From the NCBI GenBank assembly GCA_963827685.1, contig CAWHBU010000004.1:160001-224000 (forward strand): a stretch of DNA of 64,000 nucleotides, written 5' to 3'. The notes beneath the pieces are model-generated. The model had not been told where the DNA came from. It was given only the letters and a program-made list of their open reading frames with translations, and ran no database searches. This DNA is from an uncultured delta proteobacterium. GTDB lineage: Bacteria; Desulfobacterota; BSN033; UBA1163. Shown in pieces: positions 2,591-44,859 of this stretch. The position numbers were made by a program, and so were the translations under genes. How positions within the stretch are numbered: the first letter of the stretch is position 1; each line of letters starts with the position of its first letter.

Positions 2591-5500
2591 TTATACCCCC
2601 ACATATACGCTTCGCCCCTCTCCATAGTAGCTCTCAAAAATATGCTGATACACGGCGTTGCATTTCTGAGTATAAATTTCCCGGGTGAATACCCGAGGCA
2701 GTTCATCCAGTTTATCCTCGACGGCCACACGGACAGCCGCTCGTGTCGCCTGTGTTTTCCGCCAGTCGAGAACCAATTTTTCCCGTTTCAGCGTCTCCAA
2801 CAGTTCACGGGCGATGCTTTTGACTTGCCCCTCTTCCTTCTTGGTGAGTTTCATCTCGGGCTTGGTGATGAGGTCAAACACCGCCAGTTCTTCCTCGGAC
2901 AGCCCCTCCGAAACCCCCCGTTTCTCCTCTTCTTGCAGTTCGTTTACAAACTTGAGCAGTCGCTCAAAGAACTCCTCTAAGTTGGCCGCACCCTGATTGT
3001 ATTCGTCGATCATCTGTTGGAATTTCTCCAAGTAGTCCACCCGGGTCTTGTTCAGTCGCACCATCTTTTCCAAAGCAGAATTGATGGCCCCACGGAGTTT
3101 TTCAATCTCCATGCGCCTCCGTTCTTTGGCAAACTCCTTCTTGAGAGCCTTAAAATCAATCTCGCTGAGGTCGATCAGTTTTTTCTTCCCATCGGGGGTC
3201 GATGATCCCAGAATGACATACCCTTTGGCTGTGATGTTCTCGTCCAACAGATCCTCTACCTCTTCCATGATCTTGGATACATCGGCCTCGGGCTGAAGAG
3301 CCTCTATTTTCAGTTGGATGACCCGGAACAGGGCACAAACAGGGACAAACTCGTTGGCCTCGGGGTCGGGGAGTATGGCCTTGAAGATACGGTTGACAGT
3401 ATTGGAGAGGTTGATAAACCGCTTTTTGGTGGTGTCGTTGACCAAAACTACGTCAACGGCCTCATCCAGTAACTTCACCCGCTCGAACCCTTTTGCGGCG
3501 ATGATGGGTTCCACCTTGACGCTTGTTTCCTTGAGAAACTGGACAGTCTGAGCGATGGCCGTTTTGAGCATGGCGACGAGTTCCGCCTTCTCTTTGACCG
3601 GTTCTTCTCCGGGTTTCACCCCTCCGCCCGAACCCGAACCATAGATCGCCAAGGCCCTTTGAAGGTTACGAAATACCCCCACGTAGTCAACGATAAGCCC
3701 GTTCACCTTGTCCTTAAAGACCCGGTTGGCCCGGGCGATGGTCTGCATCAATGTGTGGTTCCGCATTGGCTTGTCAAGGTAGATGGCGGAACAGGATGGG
3801 ACATCGAACCCGGTCATCCACATGGCGCAGACAAACACCAACCGGAACAGATCATCAGGGTCTTTGAATTTGGTGTCCAGATCCTCCTTCACCATTCGTT
3901 GGCGATGAGGGACGATGTCCACGCCCTTCTTTTTCAACTCGGCAACTTCATTCTGAGACGAGGAAACCACGACCGCCATGTCTGTTTCCCGCATATAGGA
4001 AATCTTTTTCTCCACGTCCTGTCGTCCCGGCCCTTCCAGTTTGTTTATCTGCTTTGTCAGTCGTTGGATCTTCTGCTTCCAGTATTTCTGCACCTTGTCA
4101 TACATCTTCACGGCGGTGGCTTTATCAATGCTCACAACCATGCCCTTACCGAGTTGTCCCCGCTCGGTGAAGTGTTCGACGATGTCCTCGGCGATCTTTT
4201 CCAAGCGATCTTCCCGGGTGATAAGGTGATATTCCCGGGAAAATTCCCTTTCCAACTTCTTCTCTTGGGCCTCGTCAAGCTCTGCCTCTTCCAACAGCCG
4301 ATCCATCCCCTCCTTGAAAGCTCTCTCGTCCTTTAATTGAAGTTCAGGGATACGATTTTCATAGTAGAGCGGCACCGTGGCTCCGTCGTCCACGGACTGT
4401 TTGAAGTTGTAGATAGAAACATACTCACCAAATACCTCCCGAGTCTTTTCCTCTCCTATGATGAGTGGCGTTCCGGTGAAGGCGAGGAATGACGCTTTGG
4501 GAAGGGCGTTTCTCATGTTCAGGGCGAGGGTGTCATATTGGCTCCGGTGTGCCTCATCGGTGATGACGATAATGTCCTCCCTCTGCGATAGGACAGGATG
4601 GGGACTGCCATCCTCGGTGCGAAATTTGTGGATCAGGGTGAAAACGAACCGGTGATCCTCGGTGAGGAGGCGCCGGAGGTCTTTTGAACTTTCGGCTTGA
4701 CAATGGCCTTCCGTGATTACCCCGGCATTTGCAAAGGTCTTGTAGATCTGGTCGTCCAGTTCCTGCCGGTCGGTAACGACGACGAATGTCCAGTTCCCCG
4801 GCACTTTCCGCAAGACCTTCTGGGAGAAGAAAATCATGGAAATGGACTTGCCGCTTCCCTGCGTATGCCAGAACACACCCAAACGGCCCTTGCGGTTCTT
4901 GATTTCTTGCAGGGCAGCCATGGCGTTTTCCACCCCAAGATACTGGTGGTTCTTGGGCACAATCTTGACTATCCCGCCCCGGACTTCCATGAACAGGAGA
5001 AAGTTCTCCAAGATGTCCAGAAACCGGATTGGCTCGCAAGTCCCTCGGAGAACGGTTTCAAGGGAGATGACTCCTTCTTCCCCCTCGCTGTTGATTTTCT
5101 TCCAGTCATTGAAGTGGCCCCAGTCGGATGTGATGCTTCCAACCTTAGCCTCACTTCCATTGGAGAGGATGATGAAGGCATTGAACCAGAAGAGTTGCGG
5201 GATGGTGTCCTTGTAGTCTGTCAGATTTCCCGTGAAGGCTGTTTGAATCTGTTTGTGGCTTGCCTTGAGTTCGACAAACAGGAGCGGGATGCCGTTGACG
5301 AATCCCACGAGGTCGGCCCGCCTCTTATACATTTCCCCCACGAGCCAAAACTGGGAAACCAAGAGAAAATCATTGTTGGCGTGGTTGTCCCAATCTACGA
5401 GCCTGACAGTTTCAACCTTCTCCCCACCTCCTTCCGGGTCGGGAATATGGACTTTGACGCCGTTTCGCAGAAGTTGGTATATCTCCCGATTGGCGGCAGG

Positions 5501-5770
5501 CATACTGAGCCGAGAACGGTCACGAGTCAATTCCTCAAACATAAGATTATTTGCTTCGGGAGGGAGGTCGGGGTTCAGACGCTTGAAAGCAATACGAAGG
5601 CGGGATTGGAGGATAATTTCGGATTGATTATCCCGGCCAAGAGTACCGGAAGGGCCAAGAATTTCATGCAGGGCGTTGATATGACCCCATCCCAATTTTT
5701 TAAGCATTTCGATGGCGGGCAGTTCAATGAGTTCTTGCTCGGAATACGAATAGCTGCCTTTGAGTGTCAT
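2591..5770 (-). CDS. hsdR: type I restriction endonuclease subunit R
   Basis: RADLVGFVNGIPLLFVELK nuclease motif, HTQGSGKS Walker A, DEAHRSQ, FTGTP, MQTIARANR. Confidence 0.97.
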   Translation of the reverse strand: MTLKGSYSYSEQELIELPAIEMLKKLGWGHINALHEILGPSGTLGRDNQSEIILQSRLRIAFKRLNPDLPPEANNLMFEELTRDRSRLSMPAANREIYQLLRNGVKVHIPDPEGGGEKVETVRLVDWDNHANNDFLLVSQFWLVGEMYKRRADLVGFVNGIPLLFVELKASHKQIQTAFTGNLTDYKDTIPQLFWFNAFIILSNGSEAKVGSITSDWGHFNDWKKINSEGEEGVISLETVLRGTCEPIRFLDILENFLLFMEVRGGIVKIVPKNHQYLGVENAMAALQEIKNRKGRLGVFWHTQGSGKSISMIFFSQKVLRKVPGNWTFVVVTDRQELDDQIYKTFANAGVITEGHCQAESSKDLRRLLTEDHRFVFTLIHKFRTEDGSPHPVLSQREDIIVITDEAHRSQYDTLALNMRNALPKASFLAFTGTPLIIGEEKTREVFGEYVSIYNFKQSVDDGATVPLYYENRIPELQLKDERAFKEGMDRLLEEAELDEAQEKKLEREFSREYHLITREDRLEKIAEDIVEHFTERGQLGKGMVVSIDKATAVKMYDKVQKYWKQKIQRLTKQINKLEGPGRQDVEKKISYMRETDMAVVVSSSQNEVAELKKKGVDIVPHRQRMVKEDLDTKFKDPDDLFRLVFVCAMWMTGFDVPSCSAIYLDKPMRNHTLMQTIARANRVFKDKVNGLIVDYVGVFRNLQRALAIYGSGSGGGVKPGEEPVKEKAELVAMLKTAIAQTVQFLKETSVKVEPIIAAKGFERVKLLDEAVDVVLVNDTTKKRFINLSNTVNRIFKAILPDPEANEFVPVCALFRVIQLKIEALQPEADVSKIMEEVEDLLDENITAKGYVILGSSTPDGKKKLIDLSEIDFKALKKEFAKERRRMEIEKLRGAINSALEKMVRLNKTRVDYLEKFQQMIDEYNQGAANLEEFFERLLKFVNELQEEEKRGVSEGLSEEELAVFDLITKPEMKLTKKEEGQVKSIARELLETLKREKLVLDWRKTQATRAAVRVAVEDKLDELPRVFTREIYTQKCNAVYQHIFESYYGEGRSVYVGV

Positions 5771-6963
5771 GCGTTGGCCTCGGCAATAGCGATATCCAGT
5801 TCTGAAACGTCCAGTTCGTCGGAGATGAGTTTGGGGAGGAGAAGATCACGGGTTTGGCGGAGGATACGATTTTTCTTACCAAGAACAGCGAGTTGTTCAG
5901 CGATTGGCAAACATATTTTCTCAAACCGGACAAGGTGTCCCTTCGGAGGATAAAGGCATTCAATCCTTTCCATATCACCTTTAGTTACGGCCTTAAAAAT
6001 TGTCCCTCCGCCCATGATGTCCTCTTCCGTGAAGATTTCTTTGAGTTGATGGAAAGCAAAACATTGGTAACCATCCAAGTTTCGGATCGCAGACAGACCC
6101 CTACCAATAATAATCTTGTGGTCAGTAAGGTTTAACCTTCCTACCGGTGCCCTAACGCTGAAAAGAATATCCCCTGCTTCTGCAATCCTACCGGCAAACG
6201 TGCAATATACCCGTGTTGTCGGGAACCGTTCTCCGAAGTCAGTAACACCTTGATGGAATGGAAGCCCTTCACCATTGGTGTTGTAAAATTCTGATTTCGG
6301 AGATTGCCCCATAAGAATAGAGCAAACATCACTCAAGTGTTTTACCTCCCATCCCTCCGGTATCTTTCCCAAGGACGAATCCACCATCTTGACTTTCTGG
6401 TGGCCGGGGAAGCGGAACTTTACGAACCACTCCCGGTAGAGGGTCTGGGCTATCTCCTCCAATATCTTGATGCGCCGGAGATTGTTCTCGATCAGATCGT
6501 CGTAGGCAGAGAGAATAGAGGCGATTTTATCTTGCGTCTGTCCATCCGAAGGGATGAGCAAAAGGAGGCTATTTAGGTCAGCCTTGTTTACTGCTCCAAA
6601 GACGGCCCCGCTTTCAGCAGCATGAATATTTTCAACGTTGGCCTTTAATAAGTAAAAAATAAACCGCCCCGATCTATTTGGCCGAATTGCACATAGACCT
6701 CGACCAATGCAGCACTCTTCGGTGGCGAGGTTCAAAGCACCAACAGGCGCTCGGACACTCATAAGAATGTCCCGGGGAAGAGCAATCTTGGATGGTAGTG
6801 AGCAATAGGTCGAGGGAGAGGGATGTAATTCTCCGAAATCTCGGTTACCTTGGAAAAAAGGCAGACCATCTCCTCGGTTATTGTAATATTCTGATTTTGG
6901 AGACTGGCCCATAATGATCGTTGCCAGATCTCCAAGCCTCTTTTGCTCCCAAGATGTGGCCAT
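5767..6963 (-). CDS. hsdS: type I R-M specificity subunit with two closely similar TRDs
   Basis: Conserved spacer QDKIASILSAYDDLIENN...LYREWFV...IPEGWEV and RDLLLPKL; start overlaps the hsdM stop (TGATG). Confidence 0.95.
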   Translation of the reverse strand: MATSWEQKRLGDLATIIMGQSPKSEYYNNRGDGLPFFQGNRDFGELHPSPSTYCSLPSKIALPRDILMSVRAPVGALNLATEECCIGRGLCAIRPNRSGRFIFYLLKANVENIHAAESGAVFGAVNKADLNSLLLLIPSDGQTQDKIASILSAYDDLIENNLRRIKILEEIAQTLYREWFVKFRFPGHQKVKMVDSSLGKIPEGWEVKHLSDVCSILMGQSPKSEFYNTNGEGLPFHQGVTDFGERFPTTRVYCTFAGRIAEAGDILFSVRAPVGRLNLTDHKIIIGRGLSAIRNLDGYQCFAFHQLKEIFTEEDIMGGGTIFKAVTKGDMERIECLYPPKGHLVRFEKICLPIAEQLAVLGKKNRILRQTRDLLLPKLISDELDVSELDIAIAEANA

Positions 6964-8516
6964 CACCAACCTTCGATAATTTTCGGGATATTCTCTGCAA
7001 TCCTTTCCTCCAACTCCCTCGCTTTAACGTTCAGGACTTCCAACTCCTCGTTCAACTCCTGCAATCGCTCCTTAAAGTCGAAGTCATCTGCCTCTCCCTC
7101 GGTCACTCCTACATAGCGTCCGGGGTTCAAGCTCCATCCTTGAGCCTCAATTTCCTTAATGGCGGCCACCTTGCATAATCCGGGGACATCTGCATACTTT
7201 CCCTTCGGGAACTTTTCAGCCATCAACTTGGCGCTCTCGTGATGATTCTCATGCTTCTCCCCTCGGTAAAGCCGAACGATATTGGCAAGAAACTCAATCT
7301 GCTCGGGTTTAAAGTCCCTATGGGCACGATCAATCTGGTTGTAGATGTGCCGAGCATCGAGGAACAGCACCTTGTCCTGTCTGTCAGTCCCCTTCTTTGC
7401 TCGGTCGAGGAACCAGAGCATACATGGCAGGGTAACGGTGTAGAACATATTCGGCCCCACCGCTACCATCACGTCCACCGCCCGGTCTTGGATAAGTTTT
7501 TTGCGGATTTCCAATTCAGAGGCCCGGGCGTCTGCCGCCGAGTTTGCCATGACGAAACCGGCTCTGCCCTTCTTGCTCAAGGCACTGTAAAAAATCTGTA
7601 TCCAGAGGTAATTGGCGTTATCGACCTTGGGCAAACCAAGAGGGAAGCGAGGATCGTCTTTGAGGCGGTCTTTATCTACTCGGTCAACATTGAACGGAGG
7701 ATTGGCGAGGACAAAGTCGAATTTCCCCGGACTGGTGTGTAGATCTTCATAGTAGGTGTTTCCCTGTCGGATGTCCCCTGCAAGTCCGTGGACGGCAAGG
7801 TTCATTTTATTGAGGCGACCGGTTTCCGCCACCCGCTCCTGCCCGTAGATGCTGATCTCCGCACTCGGGTTCTTCTTGTGCTCCTCAACGAAATGAGCGC
7901 TCTGGACGAACATACCACCTGACCCACAGGCTGGGTCGAAGATGCGGCCATGAAAGGGTTCCAATATCTCGACGATGAGTTTAACTATTGCTGTCGGAGT
8001 GAAGAACTCCCCCCCCTTTTGTCCTTCAGCCATGGCGAACTTGCCAAGGAAATATTCATAAATTTTTCCGAAAGCGTCTCCTTCAATGTCCATGGGGATG
8101 GAAGCCATGATCTTCAGGAGTTCCACCAAGGATGAGTTTTCCAGCCGGTTGTAGGTCTTAGGCAGGACGTCCTTCAGATCAGGATTCTCCGCTTCGATAG
8201 CCTTCATTGCATCGTTGATTGCCTGCCCGATATTTGCTCCCTCGGGTTTCTGAAGGAGTTTCTGGAAGCGGGCGGTTTCAGGAAGGTAGAGAACACCTTT
8301 TGCTTGATAGTCGGACTTCCCGATCTGTCGGCGTCCTGTCCCCTTGCCCTCCAGTTCCTTCTGGGCGGCGGCGAACTTTTGGTCAGCGTAGCGAAGGAAG
8401 ATAAGACCAAGAACGGGGATTGAATATTCCGAGGATTTGAGTTTGGAGTTCGCCCTCAGTTCGTCGGCGGCATCCCAAAGACGTTTTTCAATCTGGTTGT
8501 TATTCCCAACAGCCAT
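6963..8516 (-). CDS. hsdM: type I R-M N6-adenine methyltransferase subunit
   Basis: [30 protein letters not shown]. Confidence 0.97.
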
Positions 8517-40403: not shown

Positions 40404-40561
40404 CGGGTGAGATTTCTTAAGGTAGGTCGAATGCCCCCTCTAAACACGAACTCCCCAAAAGTGCAGCGGGAAAAATACTAAGGAGGATCTTAGCAGAGGG
40501 GAAGAAATCGGCCACGGAAGGTGATAATAAATCGAAATGATTGCGGAAAGGAATTCAAAAC

Positions 40562-41750
40562 GTGAATGAAAGAGATTCTATAATTGTTTCTGCTGTGAGA
40601 ACCCCGATCGGCACCTTTGGAGGTTCGCTCAGGGATATCCCACATGAAGGATTGGCGGCTGCCGTCATGGGAGAAGTTTGTAATAGGGCTAGCTTCCCGA
40701 GAGAAGAGCTTGATGACATCTATTGGGGTGTGGTTATGGTTCGGAGTGACGAAAATGGCCTCGCACGTTCCGCAGCTTTAACTGCAGGAATACCAGACCA
40801 TGCCTCTGCCGTACAGGTCAATCGGGCTTGCTGCTCATCTATGGAGGCTATCAGGATTGGGTCCATGGCCATCCGCCTAGGGGAGGCAAACGCGATTATT
40901 GCCGGAGGCGGAGAAAGTATGAGCAACGTCCCCTATTCAATTAAGAACGGAAGATGGGGGTTGAGGCTTCGTCATCAAGAACTGACTGACGGTGTATGGG
41001 ACGGACTCACTGATCACCATACAGGTCTTATCATGGGGATGACTGCAGAGAATGTTGCAGAAAAATATAATATTTCGAGGGAGGATCAGGATAAGTTTTC
41101 CTACGAAAGTCAGATGCGGACCAAAAAGGCAATTGAGGAGGGAAGGTTTAAGGATGAAATCGTACCGATTAAGGTACCTGGAGAGAAAAAAGGGGAATTC
41201 AAGATGCTAGACACGGATGAATATCCGAGGCCAGGGACGACATTGGAAGGGCTGGGGCAAATTACCTCCCGCGTTCAAGAAAGAGGGTACGGTTACGGCA
41301 GGGAATTCATCTGGGATAAACGATGGAGCCTCTGCTATCTTGGTTTTATCCAGAAAAGTTGCGGACAGGTTTAATATCAAGAGAAAGTGGAGAGTTGTGG
41401 GTTCAGCAGCAATGGGTGTGGATCCTAGAATTATGGGGATTGGACCGATCCCGGCAATTAAAAAGCTTTTAAAACTGACTGGATATGATCTCAAGAAAAT
41501 AGAATTGTTCGAGATAAATGAAGCGTTCGCTGCACCCTCGATAGCTGTTGAGCGAGAACTTGGGTTGAATCATGCAATTGTAAATGTAAATGGTGGTGGA
41601 ATTGCCTTAGGTCACCCAATCGGGAATTCAGGTTGTGGTATCGTGGTGAGTTTGATCCATGAAATGGAAAAACGTGGGGTGAGACTTGGGCTTGCTGCTT
41701 TATGTGGTTGTGGCGGACACGGTCAAGCCATCCTCCTTGAACGAATTTAG
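40562..41750 (+). CDS. acetyl-CoA C-acyltransferase (thiolase), frameshifted near 41254
   Basis: VNRACCSS, NEAFAA, GHPIG, LCGCGG; extra G in ctggggcaaa. Confidence 0.87.
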
Positions 41751-42148
41751 TTCTTCTATTCCCCCCTGAAGTCTTCTTATTAATCGATGTTCTGTAAGAA
41801 TCATTTGTGCACATCTAGGGAAAAGCCGACAAGTTGTAGAATATGTCAAACAATTTATCAAGAAAAATGTTGGGTGGAGCTTTAAATGCAACGAAAATAT
41901 CAAAAGAATTTTCCCGGGAGATAGACAGATACGCGTAAGAGTATCTATATGTTGGTGGAAGAATTTATTACCACGCGGCCCTAATGATACCCCGGATGGG
42001 GTAAAGAATCAGATAAAGGTGTAACCAAATTGTAACCGTCTTAACCTAAAATAATCCAAGATAACCAAAGTTATTCCAACATGGGTTTTGTAAGTGCTTG
42101 ATATTTAACACATTGAAAATGATGGGAAATCGCCTGATTTGAGTTATC

Positions 42149-42207
42149 GACTTAAAATCCCTCGGTGGCCCCCCACCGTGCCGGTTCAAGTCCGGCCCTG
42201 GGCACCA
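42149..42207 (+). mobile_element. att scar: 3' half of tRNA-Leu(TAA)
   Basis: GACTTAAAATCCCTC...GGTTCAAGTCC...GGCACCA with no 5' half; arm-like repeats TGTAACC x2 (~42020) and GTCCCCAC x2 (~42279). Confidence 0.85.
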
Positions 42208-42374
42208 TGAAAATAAAGGGTTTTCTTGATATTGCAGGTTTAAGACGCAAGCCCTTTTTTCTTGTATCAACCCATCCAGTCCCCACCCAGTCCCCACTTC
42301 TTCAACAATGGTGACAACCTGGACAGCACAGGCAGGATAAAAGGAAGCCTCCGTATTCACAACCACCATCCCCA

Positions 42375-43376
42375 CCCTCTCTCCTTCATCGCACGATCGA
42401 CGACTTCTCTCACATGACGTTTTATGACGTTTTCTGTAGGAGCGGAGGGAATCTGGGAGCAAGAGGATCCTGAGGAATGGACGCCTCGGAGTATGTGCGC
42501 AGGGCTTGAAATTCTGCACGTTTTGAGGCGCCAAAGGCACAAACTCCCTCTTCCCCTATCCCTTTACCCCTAACCCGAGAGGACTACCCTTTTGTCGGCC
42601 TCTGTAGCCCCTTCCTGATAGCGTAGGAGGGGGTTTAGACGAGTCCTGACGGTGTGGTCTGGGAATCACCAGGGAGTTACTTCAATCGGTGTGGCCCCCA
42701 ATCTTCCGAAGGCGCTCTTTTACCTGATTTTCGATAGCCTCTGCAACCCAACTTTTATTAACCATCAGATAGTCAAAAGGTGAAGTTTTGTGAATGAGTT
42801 GAGGACTCCGACCTGCCAAAGGTGGGTTTCTTCCTCCCTCTGAATAGCTCCCATCACGAGTGTATTTTTGTGTATAAGATGGTAAGCAATCTCCCTGTCG
42901 GTCTGCACTCCCGCCCTGTGGAGATGGTCCTTCCTCGCTTTCTTAATCGCTTCCGAAACTAAAGTTTTCTTAAGTAGTTGGTTCGCAATAACATCGGCTT
43001 TTACTTCAGTTTTCTTCAGTAGTTCACAGGCAATCTCGGCAGCTATTTGCTTATTTTTACAGCGATAACCAGCACGTATTACAGCTTCGCTTCCATCTGC
43101 TTTTTAATCGCCTCTGAAACCCAACTTTTCCCAACCAGCATCGCCCGATTGACAGCTTCTCTCACTGGAGTTTTATGGAGCAGCTGGTAGGCCATCTCGG
43201 CGGCACGCTGGTCATTTTTGACTCGGAAGCCAGCACGCTTTACGGCCTCGCTTCCAACCCAAGTTTTACCAAGCAGTTGATCCGAGTAGAATAAACTTTT
43301 CTTAACCACTCCCTTACCTGTTTTTTCCCCTGCAAAAAATAATAAAAAGTCTTTCCGAGGGTGGAATTTTATGGAG
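42375..43376 (-). repeat. array of heterologous terminase-small-subunit-like gene fragments (putative pac-site library)
   Basis: Repeated segments such as SEAVKRAGFRVKNDQRAAEMAYQLLHKTPVREAV and SEAVIRAGYRCKNKQIAAEIACELLKKTEV, most centred on a 10-bp-period direct repeat. Confidence 0.7.
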
Positions 43377-43380
43377 TTTC

Positions 43381-43551
43381 TTATTGTTTAACAGAATTTT
43401 GTTTAACAACAATATTCCATCCAGCCCCTATGATCTCCCAAATAAAATCTGTCAGGGTTTCTTTTCTCTTTTGAGCCTCCTCGATGATTCTTTTCTTCGC
43501 GGCGGGAGGGACTCGAATCGCTATTATTTGAGTCCTTCTTTCTCTGCTCAT
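43381..43551 (-). CDS. small ribbon-helix-helix DNA-binding protein (56 aa)
   Basis: Manually translated MSRERRTQIIAIRVPPAAKKRIIEEAQKRKETLTDFIWEII...; GAGG RBS. Confidence 0.65.
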   Translation of the reverse strand: MSRERRTQIIAIRVPPAAKKRIIEEAQKRKETLTDFIWEIIGAGWNIVVKQNSVKQ

Positions 43552-44205
43552 TCCTTCCTCTCCTCTTCGCTGAGTCCGCTGTTCGGTGGCTTCTGGATCG
43601 GGGTGGCTTCGAGAATTATCACCGTTTTACCGCCCGCTACCGCCCCCGTTTTCTTAGGCATCAATCCCGGAAGCACCTTAGAATAAAAGTCCAGCCATCC
43701 GCGCCAGTTCTTCGCCGCTCCAAGTCCGGCAGGTGTTTTTTGTTACCCGTTGGGCTTTCCCGGTTGACGATCGCTCCCAACACCCGTTTGCAATCAAGTG
43801 CAACTTATCCCTCCACCGCCTGCCGGGATCAGACCCTTTGCCTCCCTGTTTCGTATGCCCACTGGGCAAACATCGTTCTTGGTCTACCATCGCCTTTGAA
43901 ATCCGTCACCCATATCGGCCCATATTTTATGCAAAAACTTACGCAAAAACACCCCAATGGGCAACCTCAATCTAATATTCCTCACTTTGTCAGGGGTGGT
44001 TTGACTTATAACCAATTCAGATCCTCTCCGGAAAAACAATGGGAAGGCTCCCCAGGTATTCTATCTGAAGCAGTTGGTCTGCCTTCCCACTTCCCACTAT
44101 TTTTCCCCATTTTAAGTTGCAAAATATGTTATACTGTGATAATTATCATTACAAAATGGGTGAATCGTTTCGCTAACTTATTGAAATTATAAATGGCCGC
44201 CTATT

Positions 44206-44252
44206 GACTTCTAATCCGTGGGTCGGGGGTTCGAATCCCTCCAGGCGCGCCA
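44206..44252 (+). mobile_element. attR scar: 3' half of tRNA-Arg(TCT)
   Basis: GACTTCTAATCCGTGGGTCGGGGGTTCGAATCCCTCCAGGCGCGCCA; 5' half absent; sits at the head of the tRNA cluster. Confidence 0.88.
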
Positions 44253-44262
44253 AGGTGGGTAC

Positions 44263-44356
44263 CAATGCAAACTGCAAAATTAACAATGCAAAATTAGCCG
44301 CGCAGTTCAATTGCTAATTGACCATTGCTAATTGACCAATTTGCAATGATCTTTTC
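44263..44356. repeat. heptamer-based palindromic intergenic element; a related copy lies at 44529-44640
   Basis: CAATGCA/AAATTAA units facing TAATTGA/CATTG units; both copies end TTGCAATGATCTTTT. Confidence 0.7.
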
Positions 44357-44359
44357 AAT

Positions 44360-44437
44360 GGTGAGTGTAGCTCAGTTGGATAGAGCACTGGGTTGTGGCC
44401 CCAGTGGTCGAGGGTTCGAGTCCCTTCACTCACCCCA
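44360..44437 (+). tRNA. tRNA-His(GTG)
   Basis: Cloverleaf with G-1, anticodon loop TTGTGGC, CCA. Confidence 0.95.
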
Positions 44438-44439
44438 AA

Positions 44440-44516
44440 GCGCCCGTAGCTCAGTTGGATAGAGCGTCGGACTTCGAATCCGCAGGTCGTCCGTTCGAGC
44501 CGGACCGGGCGCGCCA
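44440..44516 (+). tRNA. tRNA-Arg(TCG)
   Basis: GCGCCCG acceptor stem, loop CTTCGAA, CCA. Confidence 0.93.
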
Positions 44517-44648
44517 CCCATAAGAAACAAATGCAAATTATAAAATTAACAATGCAAAGTTAGCAGTACTGCTGAATCATGTTGAGTCGTTCAATTGCTA
44601 ATTGAGCATTGTTAATTGACCATTTTGCAATGATCTTTTTGGCGAAAA

Positions 44649-44724
44649 GAGCCGTTAGCTCAATAGGTAGAGCAACTGACTCTTAATCAGTAGGTTACAG
44701 GTTCGATTCCTGTACGGCTCACCA
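44649..44724 (+). tRNA. tRNA-Lys(CTT)
   Basis: GAGCCGT stem, loop CTCTTAA, CCA. Confidence 0.95.
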
Positions 44725-44772
44725 TTTTTTAACAATTTTATCTTTTGTGCTTTTTGCAGGCGCGGATTTTTT

Positions 44773-44859
44773 GCCGGGGTGGCGAAATTGGAATACGCGC
44801 GAGACTTAGGATCTCGTGGTCGAGAGACTGTGCGGGTTCGAGTCCCGCCCTCGGCACCA
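44773..44859 (+). tRNA. tRNA-Leu(TAG)
   Basis: Long variable arm, loop CTTAGGA, CCA. Confidence 0.95.

Follow-up and report, generated by a model that had tools for sequence, protein, structure and literature searches.

How ring-shaped small terminases (TerS) choose their packaging site, pac, is an old open question, and one kilobase of DNA from an uncultured delta proteobacterium raises it afresh. The stretch that we analyzed, hereafter the window, comprises 64,000 nucleotides (GenBank assembly GCA_963827685.1, contig CAWHBU010000004.1; C4:160001-224000 of genome G000) and belongs to a 5.2 Mb genome that is 94.5% complete, with an estimated contamination of 8%. Coordinates without a contig name are those of the window, and gene nt denotes coordinates in an intact terS gene of 630 nt. 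A first-pass annotation, made from the sequence alone, had described positions 42375-43376 as about 11 divergent terS-like fragments, most of them centered on a direct repeat with a period of 10 bp, and had proposed that an integrative island had collected the pac sites of many helper phages. What, then, are these fragments, what is the repeat within them, and how did so many copies come to stand in a row? We found that the array consists of nine terS fragments, that the repeat recurs in the intact genes of the family, where it is probably an element of pac, and that the array may best be read as a series of recombination scars.

Three-frame translation of the minus strand showed the peptides listed in the first-pass annotation at the places given for them, and this is indeed a patchwork of mutually divergent pieces rather than one gene. 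From 43284 down to 42375, nine pieces of ~28-122 bp (F1-F9, Table 1) follow one another head to tail in one orientation, all taken from the 5' part of terS genes of the Terminase_2 type. The existence of the array was thus upheld, and the count of about 11 came down to nine site-bearing units. Its peptides run through shifting frames that are broken at several of the joins, and the interval from the end of the last metabolic gene, a thiolase (41750), to four clustered tRNA genes (44361-44859) holds no credible long open reading frame (ORF). The "start codon + VNKSWV" that had been taken for a gene start is an ATG created at a join inside a leader-type unit. In a profile search of the whole genome, the Pfam family PF03592 matched the array at 42996-43091, 42888-43001, and 43139-43261 with 14.3-15.8 bits each; the first two of these stretches sum to 27.8 bits in one frame, against a cut-off of 26.1. 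A profile of helix 3 and the linker (amino acids 36-66 of an intact paralogue on contig C2) gave seven matches within 42697-43282 (8.9-43.5 bits) and exceeded 13 bits in only two other places in the genome, both at the paralogous C2 locus. Neither an intact terS nor its C-terminal domain was found at the array locus by tblastn with the 209-aa paralogue, which recovered residues 21-67 only. The array is therefore made of Terminase_2 gene fragments encoding the N-terminal helix-turn-helix (HTH), an identity that had been proposed from the peptides and that PF03592, a profile of the TerS clade (Table 1), and the structural matches given below all bear out, and it is not a functional terS gene. 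What all units have in common is the repeat itself, at gene nt ~137-158, and the remaining 480 nt of the gene supplied none of them.

The repeats of the array are 5-10 nt long, have a period of 10 bp, and lie in the codons that end helix 3 of the HTH. Between 42375 and 43376 there are eight exact repeats of at least 5 nt at an offset of 10, versus 0.95 per kb in the remaining window; offsets of 8, 9, 11, and 12 give 0-2 exact repeats each in this region. A count of eight was reached in 2 of 252 one-kb tiles of the window, both of which overlap the array region. Seven of the eight are sites that had been picked out in the first-pass annotation, the eighth (43334) is an A-run, and one further site of that annotation, at 42959-42975, is imperfect. 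A weak site claimed at 43362 falls within sequence that is homologous to the ordinary spacer after a small gene at other loci, and may be a chance look-alike.

The expectation that intact homologues would carry the repeat at the same codons was borne out, with many different words, by a family test on 131 non-redundant terS genes (amino acid positions in the numbering of the C2 paralogue). In 89 of them, the longest exact offset-10 repeat of the entire gene lies within aa 38-52, compared with 8% expected from length. Runs of at least 6 nt occur at aa 38-52 in 56 of the 131 genes, versus 0.7% of control windows of the same size taken from other parts of the genes, and offsets of 5-9 and 11-16 are at background level there. 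As an offset of 10 moves the reading frame by one, a repeat in the protein cannot cause the repeat in the DNA. When codons were resampled with the protein kept, the mean run was 2.83 versus 5.08 observed, none of the 300 resamples reached the observed mean, and 2.7 genes on average (maximum, 8) reached 6 nt. The 56 genes with the longer runs use 40 different words; the intact C2 gene, for example, has TCCTACAG twice at offset 10 in the homologous codons, and its relative in genome G003 has AATTCAT twice. Given the family-wide excess and the many words, it is repetition at one helical turn, and not a given sequence, that is maintained at the DNA level. Further copies of a gene's own word, sought from -500 to +100 bp, were present in 11 of 45 genes, mostly as 6-mers and at approximately chance level, and the site is a lone pair, not a member of a larger set of identical boxes. 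No notable offset-10 repeat was found in two other TerS-like ORFs (C4:151574-151942 and a 231-aa ORF on C6). This family-wide repeat, variable in sequence and kept against codon drift, is a result of this analysis; in the literature searched we found no published description of it, or of an array such as the present one.

Support for the idea that the repeat belongs to pac came from phages SPP1 and SF6. The clade profile matches the SF6 TerS structures 3zqp (E 1.3e-15) and 4zc3 (6.3e-12), with the repeat codons aligned to the end of the HTH. As described in PMC6316719, the SPP1 pac signal overlaps promoters, a ribosome-binding site, and the part of gene 1 that codes for the DNA-binding domain (DBD), which agrees with the earlier statement that pac lies inside terS in SPP1; TerS binds pacL and pacR, and the cut is directed to the intervening pacC. 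The legend to Figure 1 of that source places the main pac cut at coordinate 1 of the revised SPP1 genome, and the account in PMC4737164 gives pac three sets of direct repeats, boxes A, B, and C. Within gene 1 (X97918.2) we found CGCACGT twice at offset 10, in the codons for KPHVRARI, as the best offset-10 repeat of the 811 nt examined. This 7-nt repeat lies within ~10 nt of the codons homologous to the family site and starts 18 nt after coordinate 1 of X97918.2, a record whose origin may differ from that of the revised genome. By position, the family repeat would correspond to pacR, the right-hand TerS-bound part of the SPP1 signal, and the repeat in gene 1 may be box C. DNA is thought, according to PMC4856287, to wrap the TerS ring, and neighboring DBDs of the ring might then touch successive helix turns at two like sites; two such sites one turn apart would fit a direct rather than an inverted repeat. 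We consider it well motivated, and somewhat more probable than its opposite, that the repeat is a pac-site element.

From where did the units come? A protein search gave 129 relatives, and the loci obtained numbered 5 from genomes, 70 from metagenomes, and 80 from IMG/VR. The C-terminal two thirds of these relatives are conserved, and residues ~20-65 occur in discrete variants that correspond to the array units. Individual units best match different intact close-clade genes (F1 and F3-F6 each have their own; Table 1), and decay of one gene duplicated locally is thereby excluded, as had been anticipated. Judged by these matches, no fewer than seven distinct variants, all of one TerS clade, are represented among the units. 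The many helper phages that had been named as donors are not supported: as far as their sequence contexts tell, the donors are variants of this one clade, with a conserved C-terminal part, in satellite-like contexts without a nearby gene for the large terminase (terL). At L039, the one close-clade locus whose downstream genes were scanned, a methylase and an ATPase follow terS and there is no terL; a large terminase follows terS in two of three distant relatives tested.

The sole intact relative in the genome itself is the 209-aa TerS at C2:707490-708119 (PF03592, E ~1e-28), whose gene comes last in a ~8-kb element; a tyrosine integrase and a replication protein are encoded there, and capsid and TerL genes are absent. 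Searches with three TerL Pfam families found no TerL in the genome (94.5% complete), and a comparison of the two ends of the C2 element revealed no direct repeat of at least 10 nt that could mark its attachment (att) sites. Adjoining its integrase, at C2:715745-715795 (L170), is a tRNA-Arg-like 3' half (TCT anticodon stem-loop, T arm, and acceptor end), with no full tRNA at the other end of the element. Two further loci deserve mention. The large terminase beside a distant terS relative (L044:6734-8857) has Hint and intein-splicing domains and appears to be intein-bearing, and one metagenomic element has Terminase_2-type genes in tandem (L019:5250-5732, 160 aa with an N-terminal match only, and L019:5971-6633, a clade member of 220 aa).

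The assembly is of the metagenome type with an estimated 8% contamination, and samples of this kind hold many terS variants side by side, so that variant reads of a mixed community could have been chained falsely into an array. We regard this explanation as practically dismissed by independent contigs. The array is supported by Logan contigs of four public runs from four studies, some of them with other unit content. Runs X8-X20, whose shares were small, do not enter the evidence on presence or habitat, nor do parts of the stretch that a run left uncovered. Contigs of run X1, which may be the source sample, cover 42170-42429, 42457-42693, 42665-42940, 43238-43388, and 43378-43609 with at most one mismatch, and those over 42665-42940 and 43238-43609 have none. 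In run X3, from another study and under another organism label, 42847-43032 is matched with 16 differences and 43003-43561 with 27, plus a small local rearrangement at 43147-43170; the joins from F1/F2 to F5/F6 are bridged there at 91-95% identity. In addition, two proteins from the Joint Genome Institute (JGI), P0122 and P0124, read through the same join between F1 and a GSEAV unit, and the microhomologies of 3-7 nt described below are too short for chaining in a k-mer graph. The joins are thus spanned by contigs from other runs.

These sequences also show that the array changes from strain to strain. A contig of run X7 (marsh) joins 43278 to 43139 and lacks F1 and F2 (138 bp), and contigs of X7 and of run X5 (peat) leave the window sequence at 42999, exactly at the F4/F5 join. 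In P0122 the upstream text is the same, and F1 leads straight into an F4-like unit; in P0124 a longer F1 and one GSEAV unit come after a piece of the upstream segment, and the continuation is that of X5 and X7. A third protein, P0105, starts GVQAD/REIAY, a join of the same kind as F5/F6. P0105 is an N-terminally cut or chimeric gene call, as are four more (P0022, P0103, P0110, and P0111), which start at a Met just after the variable region; the contigs of all five could harbor additional arrays, or be broken at this boundary too. No second array other than the C2 locus emerged when the genome and 155 loci, translated in six frames, were scanned with the clade profile, or when 75 loci were searched by tblastn with N-terminal queries. 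Locus L085, with two profile matches, was considered and set aside as frameshifted, poor sequence. With 42375-43560 as the DNA query, 40 related genomes yielded the small upstream gene alone, in G003, and no array, although most of these genomes are fragmented.

The joins themselves suggest how the array was formed. Five were mapped against the best intact homologues that continue from the left and lead in from the right. The flanking sequences overlap by 6-7 nt at F1/F2, by 6 nt at F3/F4, and by 3-4 nt at F4/F5, and F5/F6 lies within a look-alike stretch identical at 9 of 12 positions. Microhomology had been noticed at a single join; it is present, and shared more widely, both F1/F2 and F3/F4 running into the GGAAGCGA start of a GSEAV unit. 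Each join is a backward jump of 28-112 nt in gene coordinates, by which the repeat is copied anew. A comparison of C2 with L024 appears to catch one joining event in before/after form: in C2, an L024-type N-terminal piece runs to ...KIGIH and TD-stop, ~1.45 kb of inserted sequence comes next, and a new N-terminus then rejoins the conserved C-terminal part. Within the insert lie a conserved block, another small fragment, a gene of 167 aa, the small upstream gene, and a mini-array of two units. This mini-array, of the F6-F7 type, is common to C2, L018, and the window, and its F7-type unit stands directly upstream of the intact terS in C2 and L018 (94-97% identity to those leaders).

Microhomology joins and backward jumps together provide a purely mechanical route to such an array. 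We propose that terS copies of co-resident or successively arriving elements may have been joined repeatedly out of register, mostly at microhomologies of 3-7 nt or at a short look-alike stretch, each time jumping back across the repeat, and that unequal recombination between units could later have added or removed some of them. Scars of repeated out-of-register recombination across a pac-like site are the best reading of the array, and one to which we give about an even chance. It is preferred because the joins look mechanical, the unit content drifts, and there is no intact cognate site for the genome's own TerS. An array formed as a scar need not be selected, and its units might still be potential binding sites for matching TerS variants.

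Several observations weigh against this reading. At F2/F3 the overlap is 0-2 nt, and microhomology is absent. The two-unit mini-array has been kept upstream of an intact terS in both C2 and L018, which hints at a role, and the F3-F4 pair is 96-99% identical in contigs of three other studies, as would fit selection or recent common descent. All nine units hold the 22-nt core, versus a rough estimate of ~8% for each random ~75-nt piece of a 630-nt gene; either the process was focused on the site or the site was selected. Finally, PMC4737164 reports no sequence-specific binding of the SF6 DBD, in isolated form, to the pac boxes, so that a binding role for the repeat is not established even in the model system. 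If recombination was the cause, the jumps might straddle the repeat through the placement of look-alike motifs, through a block or cut at a TerS-bound site, or through selection. We examined whether unit ends had been cut by terminase: the left ends ADVIA and REIAY each recur twice in separate arrays, ~20-30 nt before the repeat (cf. 18 nt in SPP1). This was not adopted, as the look-alike stretch at F5/F6 explains the recurrence equally well.

The array lies near the end of a much larger insertion. In six genomes of the same genus, tRNA-Arg(tct) is located 100-200 bp from a tRNA-His-Arg-Lys-Leu cluster, and both flanks are homologous to G000. The full tRNA-Arg(tct) of G000 is at C4:147991-148067, and its 3' end is duplicated at attR (Table 1). 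From the arrangement in the kin and the duplicated tRNA end it follows that 56.1 kb, including window positions 1-44205 together with C4:148068-160000, is an insertion; the locus belongs to a genomic island of the integrative kind that sits at a tRNA gene and has its integrase adjoining that tRNA, which confirms the location first suggested for it. The left end of the island encodes the integrase (C4:148074-149189), a protein with a ribbon-helix-helix domain, a primase, and a DUF932 protein. Its cargo includes a type I restriction-modification (R-M) system (HsdR 2591-5770, HsdM 6963-8516), acyl-CoA ligases and aromatic-compound genes, an HpaB-like enzyme, and a split thiolase. Facing the interior of the island, the array module, which consists of the upstream segment, the small gene, and the array, lies 110 bp in from attR.

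Table 1. Units of the terS-fragment array and neighboring features (window coordinates; L numbers are loci with intact relatives)
Feature	Coordinates	Strand	Description
F1	43257..43284	-	DQLLGKTWV; gene nt 131-158; L035-type terS (93%); repeat CTTGG/CTTGG 43259-43273
F2	43141..43262	-	GSEAVKRAGF...LLHKTPVREAVNRAM; gene nt 69-190; repeat CTCCA/CTCCA 43166-43180; PF03592 14.3 bits, clade profile 39.1 bits
F3	43090..43138	-	LVGKSWVSEAIKKQM; gene nt 136-184; repeat GTTGGG/GTTGGG 43120-43135; L024 100% over 41 bp; clade profile match
F4	42998..43095	-	GSEAVIRAGYRCKNKQIAAEIACELLKKTEVK, i.e. GSEAVIRAGY...ELLKKTEVK; gene nt 72-177; repeat ACTGAAG/ACTGAAG 43004-43020; L030 86% over 98 bp
F5	42893..42997	-	ADVIANQLLKKTLVSEAIKKARKDHLHRAGVQTD, i.e. 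ADVIANQLLKKTLVSEAIKK...AGVQTD; gene nt 109-214; imperfect repeat ACTTAAG/ACTTTAG 42959-42975 (4+2 nt); L031 95% over 37 bp; clade profile 43.5 bits; PF03592 match
F6	42804..42897	-	REIAYHLIHKNTLVMGAIQREEETHLWQVGV, i.e. REIAYHLIHKNTLV...WQVGV; gene nt 129-197; repeat ATACAC/ATACAC 42860-42875; L037 100% over 34 bp; clade profile 41.7 bits
F7	42764..42803	-	QLIHKTSPFDYL in one frame; repeat TTCAC/TTCAC 42780-42794; 97% over 31 bp to C2
F8	42692..42764	-	VNKSWVAEAIENQVKERLRKIGGH; gene nt 137-209, then TD-stop; weak repeat ~42747; clade profile 29.8 bits; best DNA matches L024, L035
F9	42375..42440	-	patchwork: LLQ half-site (LLQKT..), followed by a perfect tandem duplication of 10 bp (42414-42433) and VREVVDRAMKE; identical to L020-22 over 19 bp
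Small gene	43381..43551	-	56 aa, directly upstream of array; 80% to C2; phrog_22139 E 5e-4; no Pfam match
Upstream segment	43552..44095	-	frames broken; 43396-44095 87% identical to L018, where it precedes small gene and intact terS
Conserved non-coding block	42450..42691	-	follows F8; with F8 74% identical to C2:709158-709489
tRNA-Leu(taa) 3' fragment	42149..42218	+	tRNA positions 31-89 plus 10 nt; 94% to C7 gene
attR	44206..44253	+	48-bp exact copy of tRNA-Arg(tct) 3' end (C4:148021-148068)

The small gene is conserved upstream of terS in related elements, and its 56-aa product looks ribbon-helix-helix-like from its sequence pattern. On the other side of the array, the tRNA-Leu fragment and its flank (to 42286) are homologous to L018 and L024 and so mark an att relic of a second small element. 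We give about an even chance to the view that what lies here, at the attR end of the island, is a small satellite-type element's packaging end in a state of decay; the remnant in the window comprises just the small upstream gene, the terS fragments, and two tRNA-fragment relics, with neither an integrase nor terS. At L018:4817-6718 an intact terS, 97% identical to the C2 gene, forms a 1.9-kb module with a tRNA-Leu fragment, the upstream segment, the small gene, and the mini-array; no integrase was seen within 6 kb upstream, and a PAS histidine kinase and an excisionase-like HTH gene lie to its left. Adjoining the tRNA-Leu relic of the window is a thiolase gene on the plus strand (40541-41750), split into overlapping ORFs of 277 aa (Thiolase_N) and 177 aa (end of Thiolase_N, and Thiolase_C), which may be a frameshifted gene or a sequencing error. 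The ~240-bp conserved block follows, both here and in C2 (C2:709158-709440), a terS fragment ending ...IG.HTD-stop, and contains stretches of 31 and ~46 nt that are almost identical amid diverged sequence; it is absent from the other terS loci compared. An RNA element was sought with Rfam (gathering thresholds, and E up to 10 on 42100-44400), which returned only tRNAs and chance-level rows, and a structured RNA in 42440-42700 was rejected on folding z-scores of 0.52 and -0.68 for the two strands.

The position of the array on the island bears on the proposal that it is a selected library. In this explanation the island, or the satellite remnant on it, keeps sites for many satellite TerS variants; with the TerL of a helper, headful packaging would start here and run through the cargo in the direction of terS, so that a hitch-hiker lacking its own TerS would be transferred promiscuously or by lateral transduction. 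The repeat is the sole feature common to all nine units, six of which (F1, F3-F6, and F9) match intact environmental terS genes at 86-100%, with F7 resembling the L038 type. All units point into 55 kb of island with the type I R-M system, the acyl-CoA and aromatic-compound genes, and the integrase end, and versions of the array persist across four studies. There is also a precedent, in that a satellite, the phage-inducible chromosomal island-like element (PLE), is described in PMC11417361 as needing a 14-bp mimic of its helper's pac site. However, the unit content differs between strains by simple deletions, and the sites are spaced ~45-115 bp apart without helical phasing. No unit has an intact copy of TCCTACAG, the repeat of the only intact clade TerS in the genome, and F9 has one half of it; no large terminase was found in the 94.5%-complete genome, and comparable arrays were not found in the 150 other terS loci examined. 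On balance, we think the selected library possible, but less likely than the scars.

A bolder form of this idea would take the direct-repeat pair, one turn apart in the codons of the recognition helix, as the pac recognition element itself, so that specificity and site travel together as a ~100-bp cassette and the array is a working collection of such cassettes. We hold this to be doubtful. If it were true, an island lacking TerS could be packaged by the TerS of any sister satellite, which would make it a parasite of satellites, and a headful would run into the 55 kb of cargo.

Cassettes of this sort could alternatively be a silent store that donates to an expressed terS, where one conversion would swap both the recognition helix and the site and thereby change packaging specificity. 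The N-terminal 70 residues of the clade are a mosaic of discrete variants with a conserved C-terminal part, the two-unit mini-array in C2 and L018 lies directly upstream of the intact terS in the same orientation, and the conserved unit edges GSEAV..RAGY and EAI..ERL.KIGV could act as short homology arms. However, the window array has no expression copy; its units span only 28-122 bp, one conserved edge is missing from several of them, and the inside of the site is scrambled in F9. No recombinase or dedicated machinery was recognized beside the array, where the small gene has no Pfam match and the upstream frames are broken. A silent store thus seems to us quite improbable. We rate lower still a defensive role, in which pac-like sites on the chromosome would titrate the TerS, or misdirect the terminase, of invading satellites and phages. 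Many sites for different TerS variants do lie on an island with a type I R-M system; yet a single copy of each site cannot titrate a protein of the lytic cycle, and the sites lie within a satellite remnant and not in a host defense locus. Recombination scars thus remain the preferred reading, and as such the array would be a record of the satellite variants that met in one lineage. If its units are functional, one island could be mobilized by many packaging specificities, a new transfer route for defense and metabolic genes in sediment bacteria. The array shows a short region of terS to be a hot spot that is duplicated, joined, and retained on its own, without the remainder of the gene, and the family-wide repeat offers a concrete, testable element for pac choice, one that comes in 40 natural variants and supplies a simple rule by which pac could be predicted in silico.

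How does the locus compare with known systems? The silent-cassette arrays pilS of Neisseria and vls of Borrelia, which serve gene conversion, likewise consist of head-to-tail, mutually divergent partial copies of the variable part of one gene, in which the frame is not kept. Here, in contrast, the array locus has no expression site, the units are far shorter, and the target would be a DNA-binding specificity and not a surface antigen. As in clustered regularly interspaced short palindromic repeats (CRISPR), short pieces of foreign mobile elements stand in a row at one locus and their content differs from strain to strain. Unlike CRISPR, the array has no constant repeats, its spacing is irregular, its units overlap in homology, and there are no cas genes nearby; a CRISPR array was considered and rejected, since only homeologous unit parts (63-81% identity) recur and the tandem repeats found are the 10-bp sites themselves.

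Satellites of the Staphylococcus aureus pathogenicity island (SaPI) or phage-inducible chromosomal island (PICI) type encode their own TerS, and cos-type SaPIs and P4 are examples of satellites that mimic packaging signals. The C2 paralogue resembles the former in that its element, over ~8 kb, carries genes for a tyrosine integrase and a replication protein, with TerS coming last, and none for capsid or TerL; the window copy differs as a remnant without integrase or terS. Pseudo-pac sites and SaPI TerS are among the subjects described in PMC8494744. With the pac of SPP1 and SF6 the array shares the TerS family, a signal in the DBD-coding start of terS, and direct repeats (PMC6316719, PMC4737164). 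SPP1, however, has one signal in one functional gene, whereas the array strings together nine copies of the site region, drawn from different variants, with no gene around them. In the PLE of Vibrio cholerae, whose helper is ICP1, a 14-bp match within an 89-bp stretch is needed, as set out in PMC11417361. There, as possibly here, a mobile element without a motor carries a packaging signal that is read by the small terminase of another element; known cases of such mimicry, however, involve one signal and one helper, whereas the array described here would offer up to nine different putative sites, whose source is sister-satellite terS genes and not a helper.

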